From Smithella sp. (lineage in GTDB: Bacteria > Desulfobacterota > Syntrophia > Syntrophales > Smithellaceae): 64,000 bases of DNA. Shown one piece after another: positions 48,765-54,493 of this stretch; position 1 is the first letter of the stretch, and every line of letters starts with the position of its first letter. The position numbers and the translations under genes were made by a program. The stretch covers positions 3,539 through 67,538 of the forward strand of contig JBEKMY010000009.1 in NCBI GenBank assembly GCA_049523355.1, given 5' to 3'. The notes beneath the pieces were generated by a model, which worked only from the letters and a program-made list of their open reading frames with translations, ran no database searches and was not told where the DNA came from.

Positions 48765-49211
48765 TTATACGTCAAAAGAAGCGTTTATTTTAAAAGTGTT
48801 CATCGCTCTCATATCCAGGATATCCATCACGCCGGTTTTTTCTTTCAATTCTTTAAGAAATGCTTTCAGCTCTTTGGTTGACGCGGCGCTAACGGTAAAC
48901 CAGATGTTGTATTCATTATCGCGCCGGTAATTATGCGTGACATTTTTATTGGCATTCACGATTGCAACGAAGCCATCTATTTTTTCTTCCGGCACGCGCA
49001 CGGCGCAGAGAGTGCTGACACGGCCAAGCTTCGCGCCATCAAATACGGCACCGATACGGCGGATGATTCCTTCTTCTTTCATCTTCCTGATACGGCTGAT
49101 CGTCTCATCCTCACTGATGCCGCAACGATTGCCGGCAATTAAAAACGGCTGCTCCTCCAGCGGGAATTCTCTTTGCAGAATATTTAATATTTTTTTATCA
49201 ACATCATCCAT
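48765..49211 (-). CDS. siroheme decarboxylase subunit (AhbA/AhbB; Lrp/AsnC-like NirD/G/H/L family)
   Basis: LD..D..IL..LQ.EFPL...PF pattern, 148 aa, located in the ahb/hem cluster. Confidence 0.7.
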   Translation of the reverse strand: MDDVDKKILNILQREFPLEEQPFLIAGNRCGISEDETISRIRKMKEEGIIRRIGAVFDGAKLGRVSTLCAVRVPEEKIDGFVAIVNANKNVTHNYRRDNEYNIWFTVSAASTKELKAFLKELKEKTGVMDILDMRAMNTFKINASFDV

Positions 49212-49227
49212 AAAAATATCCTACTTC

Positions 49228-49609
49228 GTCATACCGGCGCAGGCCGGTATCCAGTTATATGATAGTATTATATAAATCATTCCAATCGGGATTATTTTCT
49301 TCAAGTAACCTGATCTTCCAAGCTCTTTTCCATTCTTTCACATTCTTTTCCCGTTCAATAGCCGAATTCATATTGTTATGCAATTCATACCAGACAAGAT
49401 TATGAACACCATATCGTTTCGTAAAACCTTTCACTAAATTATTCTTATGTTCCCATATTCTTTTGACCAGATCTGATGTAACACCTATGTAAAGAGTTCC
49501 GTTCCTCTCACTTGCCAGAATATATACAGCCGTTTGTTTTATCATTTGTGTCTCTGGTTCTCATCTTCCGCCGGAGATGTTTCTGGATACCGGCCTCCGC
49601 AGGTATGAC
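49228..49609 (-). mobile_element. GIY-YIG mini-element: nuclease ORF bracketed by 27-bp inverted hairpin repeats
   Basis: gtcataccggcgcaggccggtatccag (49228-49254) matches the reverse complement of 49583-49609 at 25/27. Each copy is itself a hairpin. Confidence 0.55.
49255..49545 (-). CDS. GIY-YIG nuclease family protein (UPF0213/COG2827-like)
   Basis: VYILASERNGTLYIGVTSDLVKRIWEHK...EREKNVKEWKR pattern. 96 aa. Confidence 0.85.
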   Translation of the reverse strand: MIKQTAVYILASERNGTLYIGVTSDLVKRIWEHKNNLVKGFTKRYGVHNLVWYELHNNMNSAIEREKNVKEWKRAWKIRLLEENNPDWNDLYNTII

Positions 49610-49621
49610 TAAATAAATGAA

Positions 49622-50689
49622 CTATTTATCACTAACGCTTTTAGGCTGATAAAGACATAGTGGCTCTTCAGCGAGATAATCTCCTGTCGCTTCATACGCG
49701 CGTGCCCGGCAACCTCCGCAAACCTTGATAAACTCGCAGCGTCCGCATTTGCCGCCGTACTTGCCGTAATTGCGCAAATTGCGAAACACTTTCGAATTTT
49801 CCCATATGTCTGCAAAAGTTTGTTTCTTCACATTGCCGCAATTCAGTTCCAGATAACCGCAGGGCTGCACTTGGCCGACATGGGAAATAAAACAAAATGT
49901 TATGCCGCCCAGACATCCTCTTGTCGATTCGTGGAAGTGACCTTGCACTTTTTTCTTCTGCTCCTCTGACTTGTCCCTATTCTGATGCATGATGCGGAAG
50001 TAATGAGGTGCGCAAGTGGCCTTGAGTTGAATTTCACAACTTAAGCTCTCCCGATGAAACCACATCAGAGTCTCTTCATAATCAGCTGCTGTTATTGCCT
50101 GACCGGCAAGCTCCTTTCCTCGGCCAGTAGGAACGAGCAGAAAGATGTGATGCGCCGCAGCCCCTATTTTTTCAGCTAATTCCAGAATATCTTTAATCTG
50201 TTTGAGGTTCACTGAGGTGATTGTAGTATTGATTTGAAATTCCATCCCTGCATCTTTGAGCGCTGCAATTCCAGCCATCGCTCCGGCAAACGCGCCTTTC
50301 TCCTGACGAAAAGCATCATGGCTTTGCGCATCCTTGCCGTCAATACTGATACTGACTCTTTTAATACCGCTTCGAATCATTTTCTTCACAACAGCAGGAG
50401 TAACTAAAGTGCCATTTGTCGCCATGACCATGCGCAAACCCTTGTTTGTCCCGTAGGCGGCAATTTCAAAAATATCCGGCCGCAAAAGCGGCTCGCCGCC
50501 TGTAAGAATAATCACCGGCGAGGATACGGCGGCAATGTCATCAATAAGGTCAAAGCATTTTTTTGTGGAAAATTCTCCCGCATAAGGTCCACCATTGGCC
50601 GCTGCCCTGCAATGAGCGCAGTTTAGATTGCAGCTGCGCGTCACTTCCCACGCAATCATGCGGACTTTATTATCAGGATCAATCATCAT
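49622..50689 (-). CDS. ahbD: radical SAM/SPASM enzyme of the alternative haem pathway (AhbD-like haem synthase; C versus D assignment tentative)
   Basis: CNLNCAHC radical-SAM motif, C-terminal Cys-rich SPASM region, cluster context. Confidence 0.65.
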   Translation of the reverse strand: MMIDPDNKVRMIAWEVTRSCNLNCAHCRAAANGGPYAGEFSTKKCFDLIDDIAAVSSPVIILTGGEPLLRPDIFEIAAYGTNKGLRMVMATNGTLVTPAVVKKMIRSGIKRVSISIDGKDAQSHDAFRQEKGAFAGAMAGIAALKDAGMEFQINTTITSVNLKQIKDILELAEKIGAAAHHIFLLVPTGRGKELAGQAITAADYEETLMWFHRESLSCEIQLKATCAPHYFRIMHQNRDKSEEQKKKVQGHFHESTRGCLGGITFCFISHVGQVQPCGYLELNCGNVKKQTFADIWENSKVFRNLRNYGKYGGKCGRCEFIKVCGGCRARAYEATGDYLAEEPLCLYQPKSVSDK

Positions 50690-54467: not shown

Positions 54468-54493
54468 GTCATTCCCGCTTGCGCGGGAATGAC
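54468..54493. repeat. solo hairpin repeat of the GIY-YIG-associated family
   Basis: gtcattcccgc-ttgc-gcgggaatgac, a perfect 11-bp stem, in the hemC/cobA-hemD spacer. Same GTCATxCC...GGxAT architecture as 49228 and 49583. Confidence 0.6.

Follow-up and report, generated by a model that had tools for sequence, protein, structure and literature searches.

The window, the 64,000-nucleotide stretch of Smithella sp. DNA analysed here, carries inside its haem operon what is very probably an Ssn nuclease gene with its cognate SRM/NTS hairpins, arranged in the canonical order SRM–ssn–inverted SRM and forming an old, insertion-sequence-like selfish or domesticated cassette. Judged by its sequence, this cassette is no undescribed element: it belongs to the published Ssn/SRM system and adds a new host lineage to it. 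In Neisseria, Chenal et al. (2025, Nat Commun 16:2388, PMC11893778) defined the NTS hairpin, CGTCATTCCCGCGMAVGCGGGAATCYRG, together with a looser SRM pattern, and found such hairpins flanking homologues of ssnA, a 94-aa GIY-YIG gene, in many phyla. For SsnA to bind, the hairpin must be in single-stranded DNA (ssDNA) and in one orientation; the cut then falls a few nucleotides upstream, and mutation of Y6, Y17 and E64 abolishes cutting by the meningococcal enzyme (PMC11893778). The SRM–ssn–SRM layout was published in the same work, whose authors suggest that NTS–ssnA–NTS looks like an insertion sequence (PMC11893778).

The Smithella cassette shares with this system a single-domain GIY-YIG protein of ~95 aa, the same catalytic residues, the SRM–gene–inverted-SRM order and the hairpin design, in which a C/T-GTCAT tag leads into an 8-bp stem that begins with AT and closes on a 4-nt loop, with CCAG as the tail. 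It differs from the published cases in its host, a syntrophic deltaproteobacterium, in its stem (ATACCGGC and not ATTCCCGC), in the modest number of ~22 hairpins per genome, in its place inside a biosynthetic operon and in the degeneracy of its upstream hairpin. It is known here from sequence alone, which supports the assignments to a protein family and a repeat family, the geometry, the series of presence and absence, the unit boundaries and the purifying selection described below; any part that Ssn plays in moving its own cassette would be hypothetical.

The ssn gene in the haem operon

The spacer between ahbD and ahbA (49212–49621, 410 bp) is taken up by a 96-aa GIY-YIG ORF, just as the first-pass annotation of this DNA had described it. 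The cassette proper is a unit of 382 bp (Table 1). Its gene has the same orientation as the operon, which continues with HemB and AhbC, these genes too lying on the minus strand. The stop codon of ahbD is 12 nt away from the cassette, and the AGGA ribosome-binding site of ahbA is preserved between the downstream hairpin and the ATG.

Table 1. Coordinates of the cassette, its neighbouring genes and a solo palindrome in the same operon
Feature	Position	Strand	Remarks
ahbA (sirohaem decarboxylase subunit)	48765–49211	−	Downstream operon gene; NF040708, 157.7 bits (cut-off 140)
Downstream SRM/NTS-like hairpin, GTCATACCGGCGCAGGCCGGTATCCAG	49228–49254	+	Inverted relative to ssn; abuts the stop codon; intact
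ssn, Ssn-family GIY-YIG nuclease gene (96 aa, one domain)	49255–49545	−	ATG start; PF01541 E 1.3e-16
37-nt leader from the upstream hairpin to the ssn start codon	49546–49582	−	Part of the conserved cassette
Upstream SRM/NTS-like hairpin, GTCATACCTGCGGAGGCCGGTATCCAG on the ssn sense strand	49583–49609	−	One stem mismatch
ahbD (haem b synthase, radical SAM)	49622–50689	−	Upstream operon gene; TIGR04545, 573 bits
Solo perfect palindrome, GTCATTCCCGC-nnnn-GCGGGAATGAC	54468–54493	.	Spacer between hemC and cobA-hemD; DNA fold −14.9 kcal/mol

The PF01541 match spans residues 6–78, and Pfam finds no second domain. For comparison we used a 94-aa SsnA homologue of Neisseria gonorrhoeae, recovered from a reference-genome scan as an ORF amid NTS copies (L132), which stands in for meningococcal SsnA. 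Over 93 aa the two proteins are 66% identical (E 9e-46, where Chenal et al. took E < 1e-10 as homology to Neisseria SsnA). The size and domain content of the Smithella protein likewise fall within the Ssn range of ~90–100 aa with a single domain and no extra DNA-binding domain. Residues Y8, Y19 and E66 are invariant in an alignment of 10 sequences and match Y6, Y17 and E64 of the gonococcal and meningococcal proteins. By homology the 96-aa protein belongs to the Ssn family of ssDNA nucleases, and relatives at 66% identity lead us to expect that it would cleave ssDNA. As a member it would be expected to fall in the CDD subfamily cd10448 (GIY-YIG_unchar_3).

NCBIfam holds no model specific to the product, a PHROGs search gave no match and PADLOC returned marginal matches only (E ≥ 3e-4); given the last two results, this is not a catalogued defence or phage family. 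A single-sequence search of the PDB yielded only a spurious WD40 match, and a profile search gave weak matches to UPF0213 proteins (E 5e-5 and 9e-3). Members of this UPF0213 or YhbQ type (PDB 1zg2, 1ywl) are also small single-domain GIY-YIG proteins and provide the nearest solved structures, but the similarity is weak, the subfamily is a different one and no hairpin repeats have been reported for it.

GIY-YIG homing endonucleases of the I-TevI or Seg type join the nuclease domain through a linker to a C-terminal DNA-binding domain, cut double-stranded DNA and usually reside in introns or phages. The protein in the window ends at residue 96 and has no DNA-binding domain. With the intron-endonuclease model TIGR01453 it reaches 24.4 bits, below the cut-off of 56, over the catalytic domain only, and it has no PHROG match. 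Since Ssn enzymes, moreover, cut ssDNA only, the first-pass description of the unit as homing-type finds no support.

Among subgroup-A ssn copies (defined below), dN/dS against congeners is 0.06–0.17, and values near 0.1 indicate purifying selection and a maintained Ssn protein. In the sister genome G020 (L034/L006) codon 72 of ssn has changed from TGG to the stop codon TGA while the upstream hairpin is intact; in the window the damage is the reverse, with an intact gene and a damaged upstream hairpin. A second ssn gene of the genome under study, on contig C114, is 79% identical to the window copy and has a hairpin 4 nt past its stop codon. The genome also has a third small GIY-YIG ORF (G000:C10:41299–41511; PF01541 E 2.8e-17), which is 32% identical to ssn.

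A promoter scan of the cassette found no promoter-like site, and the leader is without a sigma-70-like promoter; the cassette is most likely co-transcribed with the operon. In a terminator scan of the cassette, neither hairpin was followed by a T-run, the nearest U-run lying 14 nt past the downstream stem. As the hairpins are not terminator-like, read-through transcription would need no special mechanism, and the question raised earlier, how the operon is transcribed through them, calls for no special explanation.

The hairpins might instead work at the RNA level in the manner of intra-operon REPs, stabilising or partitioning the ahbD and ahbA messages, with the GIY-YIG gene as a passenger. 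The downstream hairpin is indeed stable as RNA (−13 kcal/mol) and sits between two cistrons, and REPs are thought to stabilise mRNA according to a passage in PMC3733652. However, the upstream hairpin is mutated and weak, most congeners have no SRM in this spacer of the same operon, the characterised Ssn enzyme does not bind RNA (PMC11893778), and hairpin and nuclease are linked across phyla whatever the neighbouring genes. We consider an RNA-level function improbable, and the best reading is that the Ssn cassette has no role in haem synthesis.

The hairpin repeats and their link to the nuclease

The two 27-mers at the ends of the unit are inverted and 25/27 identical, differing by two mismatches, and 100 shuffles of the window produced 0 matches to the inverted copy of the 27-mer. 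The first-pass annotation had reported this identity correctly, along with the shadow ORF containing VIPAQAGIQ, which is present. Its further statement that both repeats are stem-loops holds for the downstream copy, which folds as DNA at −8.4 to −8.6 kcal/mol with a z-score of about −4 (−4.2), and fails for the upstream copy, in which a G-to-T change in the stem leaves a fold of −3.6 kcal/mol (z −0.8), no better than shuffled sequence. Of the two copies, the downstream one is an exact match to the published SRM pattern and the upstream one fails at the mutated stem base only. The mutated hairpin may no longer be bound by Ssn. In G020 the intact form of the upstream hairpin is GTCATACCGGCGGAGGCCGGTATCC. 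We scored the window cassette as carrying SRMs on both sides in inverted orientation; in G020, G048 and G016 the orthologous cassettes retain two intact hairpins and a leader of similar sequence and spacing (~38 nt).

The repeat is laid out as cGTC-ATACCGGC-GCAG-GCCGGTAT-CCAg and fits the NTS consensus given above. Its layout also agrees with the definition of CGTC-1 REPs, a class that includes dRS3 of Neisseria and RPE-6 of Rickettsia and for which no dedicated enzyme was found (Di Nocera et al. 2013, BMC Genomics 14:522, PMC3733652): the tag is CGTC or TGTC, the stem has 8 bp with A-T in its first two positions, the loop has 4 nt and the tail is CCA, and the copies are many, intergenic and often arranged as head-to-head dimers. 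Unlike the CGTC-1 REPs of that study, the Smithella repeats bracket a nuclease gene, as those of Chenal et al. do.

Three exact copies of the 27-mer occur in the genome, and an identical 28-mer lies beside ssn homologues in other phyla (for example at L096). The SRM pattern matched 27 times genome-wide, compared with 7.2 ± 2.5 matches in 20 dinucleotide-preserving shuffles, and a tighter structural search left ~22 true hairpins in the 3.8 Mb genome. Their stems vary by compensatory changes (ATACCGGC, ATTCCCGC, ATGCCGAC, ATTCCGGT); none lies within a long open frame, and many are found among other small repeats. On contigs C10, C25, C34, C141 and C199 of this genome (G000) SRM hairpins take part in BIME-like mosaics, their partners being TAGTCCGGGTCTTCAGACCCG hairpins and longer GTCATTGCG...GGCAATC hairpins.

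To what extent hairpin and nuclease belong together can be read from 80 loci with ssn homologues drawn from many phyla. An SRM lies within 150 nt of the gene in 62 of them (78%) and on both sides in 38, and 29 of the 80 have the upstream-direct, downstream-inverted geometry. The published figures for SRMs beside ssn homologues, 71% and 42% (PMC11893778), are close, and the published association is thereby reproduced; the link between this hairpin and small GIY-YIG genes that the first-pass annotation pointed out is a specific one. A generic REP that happens to neighbour an unrelated small nuclease gene could account for the ~20 other places in the genome where the hairpin stands without such a gene. 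It would leave unexplained the proximity and shared inverted geometry just given, the way nuclease subgroups follow stem variants, and the published statistics and biochemistry (PMC11893778), and we regard chance association as extremely improbable.

An ssn homologue is present in 24 of 36 genomes of the genus, and none was found at E ≤ 1e-10 in the other 12. The nucleases fall into subgroups by their identity to the window protein: subgroup A (77–100%) goes with ATACCGGC-like stems, subgroup B (61–68%) with ATTCCCGC, subgroup C (57–62%) with ATTGCCCGG and a 5-nt loop, and subgroup D (43–48%) with no hairpin detectable by the pattern used. This pairing is an illustration and not a statistic, as the relatives are non-independent and subgroup B represents essentially one orthologous site.

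Boundaries, age and decay of the cassette in the genus

We compared the ahbD region of 24 genomes of the genus, this one included, and of outgroups. The ahbD–ahbA spacer contains an ssn cassette in five of the 24 (this genome, G020, G016, G015 and G014). Two others (G003 and G013) have a gene-less hairpin doublet that retains the final few bases of the ORF, and two have half-hairpin remnants. A different MITE of ~130 nt, whole or partial, occupies the spacer in 11 genomes and another type of repeat in two, while G011 and G009 have short, empty spacers of 21–32 nt. SRMs were absent from the ahbD–ahbA spacer of genomes from other families. Genomes with the cassette appear in at least three separate places in a tree built from the flanking genes, with this genome and G020 nested among MITE-bearing relatives.

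Cassettes of the same subgroup are also found elsewhere: the sister genomes G008 and G018 have one in the hemB–ahbD spacer, and others lie at unrelated loci in G048, in G006 and on contig C114 of this genome. When cassettes from three different sites were aligned, similarity began at GTCAT and ended at ATGAC, which delimits precisely the 382-bp unit of the first-pass annotation. The C114 and G006 cassettes are 89% identical and have unrelated flanks. Together with the shared boundaries, this indicates that the unit moved as a block at some time. Filled and short spacers at one junction, and the same type of cassette elsewhere between unrelated flanks, agree with the discrete insert proposed at the outset. 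Comparison of the junction among relatives argues against an ancestral fixture of the operon: distant relatives do not all carry the gene here. Nor is the 27-mer a generic REP without enrichment next to GIY-YIG genes.

The suggestion that the unit had landed in the operon stands as regards movement as a block; the divergence of the gene speaks against a recent arrival. Between this genome and G015, G016 and G014, dS of ssn is 0.68–0.94, about that of ahbD and ahbA (0.62–1.37), and a synonymous divergence similar to that of the flanks points to long residence rather than recent landing. Vertical descent with repeated loss and repeated insertion would account for this agreement equally well. We found no near-identical cassette copies within this genome, its two paralogues being those that are 79% identical; no target-site duplication at the cassette sites; and no target motif there beyond Y-C before GTCAT. 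There is no sign of recent cassette movement.

We also looked for a recombination tract from which the gain might be dated. The genomes G000, G017 and G020 show patchy, mosaic identity all around the locus (window 48765–50689 against L005 and L006): against G017, dS is 0.033 for ahbA and 0.152 for ahbD, and against G020 it is 0.036 for ssn and 0.15 for the flanks. This mosaic suggests recombination breakpoints near the spacer and fits either a gain in G000 and G020 or a replacement in G017.

Other small elements share these spacers. The palindromic ~130-nt MITE (L005, L007, L008, L012, L013, L018, L022, L025 and L026), with ends ...CTGTTGAAAAG... and ...CTTTTGAACAG..., provides the last codons and the stop of ahbD, so that the C-terminus of AhbD varies with the element present. 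The hemB–ahbD spacer of several congeners contains a mini-cassette with a DUF559 ORF of ~115 aa (PF04480, E 4e-44; L009, L012, L008, L014 and L024, in G016, G021, G007, G004 and G003), bracketed by inverted G/C-rich repeats that translate as ...PSPSPQGRGE... and ...GEGxGVRV.... Its layout parallels SRM–ssn–SRM with a different nuclease fold, and its repeats, gene-less, occupy the ahbD–ahbA spacer in G022 and G024. Hairpin loops themselves serve as insertion targets. In two genomes an element of ~46 nt with AACCTGAAGGTCAC lies inside an SRM loop, and in a third genome the loop that holds it belongs to an unrelated MITE (L016, L021 and L012; spacers of G013, G010 and G021), and in G008 (L015) the loop of the upstream SRM is split by an insert of ~170 nt with inverted ends of its own.

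The solo palindrome further along the same operon, in full GTCATTCCCGCgcaaGCGGGAATGAC and flanked by hemC and the cobA-hemD fusion, marks a second cassette site. Exactly in this spacer at least nine congeners have a subgroup-B SRM–ssn–SRM cassette, with two more in which one flank was seen. These cassettes read GTCATTCCCGC...GGGAATCCAG – ssn – CTGGATTCCCGC...GGGAATGAC, and the right junction ATGACagtgct is common to the palindrome and the G007/L044 cassette. In two congeners the spacer measures 9 nt and in two its content is unrelated. Because a hairpin core reads the same as its reverse complement, a cassette's two cores form direct as well as inverted repeats; recombination or slippage between them would delete ssn and leave exactly GTCAT-core-ATGAC. 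The palindrome at this site is probably the collapsed remnant of a second, subgroup-B cassette. At the places orthologous to the two other perfect GTCAT...ATGAC palindromes of the genome (C11:56592 and C53:14255) congeners have no ssn, and the collapse reading thus concerns this single site. The best reading has two routes of decay, internal deletion giving a gene-less doublet and core recombination giving one perfect palindrome.

The same spacer of G020 and G004 (L146, L147) has, instead of cassette or palindrome, an insert of 386 nt that contains a different hairpin repeat and a short ORF encoding a hydrophobic peptide (MGMFKKEAIIMLLAFIALIFLGW...); L045, L049 and L059 have similar sequence beside the cassette.

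Cleavage, mobility and function

From the behaviour of the Neisseria and Wolbachia enzymes, the Smithella Ssn would be expected to bind its hairpin only as ssDNA and in one orientation, with the GTCAT flank and the C that follows the stem as the predicted critical bases, and to nick a few nucleotides 5′ of GTCAT. Given the inverted hairpins, the predicted cuts, one per strand, lie immediately beyond the two ends of the 382-bp unit. Within the genus the whole unit would have shifted from one intergenic spacer to another, with selection keeping its function.

The cassette might be an autonomous transposon, with Ssn as its transposase and as the missing enzyme of the CGTC REPs, nicking ssDNA outside each inverted hairpin at the replication fork and so excising and reinserting both the unit and the doublets. 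The inverted-terminal-repeat geometry and the cuts predicted at the outer boundaries accord with this, as do the occurrence of one type of cassette at no fewer than four different sites in the genus, the end of similarity exactly at GTCAT and ATGAC, and the gene-less doublets that share the ahbD–ahbA site in G003 and G013. No dedicated transposase of CGTC REPs was found by Di Nocera et al. 2013 (PMC3733652), and the resemblance to insertion sequences has been raised by Chenal et al. (PMC11893778). Against an autonomous transposon stand the lack of a target-site duplication and target motif, the lack of recent copies in this genome, a divergence of ssn that matches its flanks, and the limiting of transformation in Neisseria as the sole role demonstrated in vivo (PMC11893778). 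The two predicted cuts, furthermore, fall on opposite strands, whereas IS200/IS605 transposases cut one strand twice. We know of no strand-transfer chemistry for GIY-YIG enzymes. On balance, autonomous transposition is a tentative proposal.

The IS200/IS605 comparison extends further. TnpA of these elements acts on subterminal hairpins in ssDNA; hairpin recognition in ssDNA, cleavage beside the hairpin and the lack of a target-site duplication resemble what is described here. In IS200/IS605, however, the hairpins and both cuts lie on one strand, unlike the inverted hairpins of the cassette, and the enzyme fold differs.

REPtrons, in which a RAYT (TnpA-REP) gene is accompanied by inverted GTAG REPs and REPIN doublets, similarly have a nuclease gene bracketed by scattered inverted hairpins, and gene-less doublets. 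The resemblance is one of architecture only: their enzyme is an HUH/Y1 tyrosine transposase and their tag GTAG, and the GIY-YIG gene and CGTC tag of the present cassette rule out that identity.

The cassette could also represent a domesticated host function as in Neisseria: Ssn would cut incoming or exposed ssDNA at SRMs and so shape recombination around the genes beside the hairpins, its position in the operon being incidental. The experiments in Neisseria (PMC11893778), the purifying selection on ssn and the mosaic identity among G000, G017 and G020 around the locus are compatible with such a role. The absence of ssn from 12 of 36 congeners would be odd for a useful function, and the G020 copy has a nonsense codon. 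With only ~22 hairpins in 3.8 Mb and two ssn genes, compared with hundreds of hairpins in Neisseria, a genome-wide role like the ssDNA restriction demonstrated there is doubtful here. Smithella is not known to be naturally competent. We think a host function of the Neisseria kind unlikely.

The value of an Ssn/SRM cassette in Smithella lies in the comparative series that it opens: three spacers of one operon, and other loci besides, either have the cassette or lack it, and one genus also displays base-sharp boundaries, two routes of decay and nuclease subgroups paired with different stems. These natural enzyme–hairpin pairs (ATACCGGC, ATTCCCGC and ATTGCCCGG) may furnish ssDNA-cutting tools of differing specificity. 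Where Chenal et al. could only suggest a likeness to insertion sequences, the series offers a concrete and testable picture of a life cycle. SRM–ssn–SRM units may conceivably be genuine mobile elements bounded by GTCAT...ATGAC, with Ssn as the enzyme that spreads CGTC-tagged REPs, although we hold this view only provisionally. If it is right, the genus Smithella would constitute a natural series in which sites are filled, empty, occupied by a gene-less doublet or reduced to a solo palindrome, and core recombination would explain the origin of perfect-palindrome, dRS3-like repeats that have no NTS flank.
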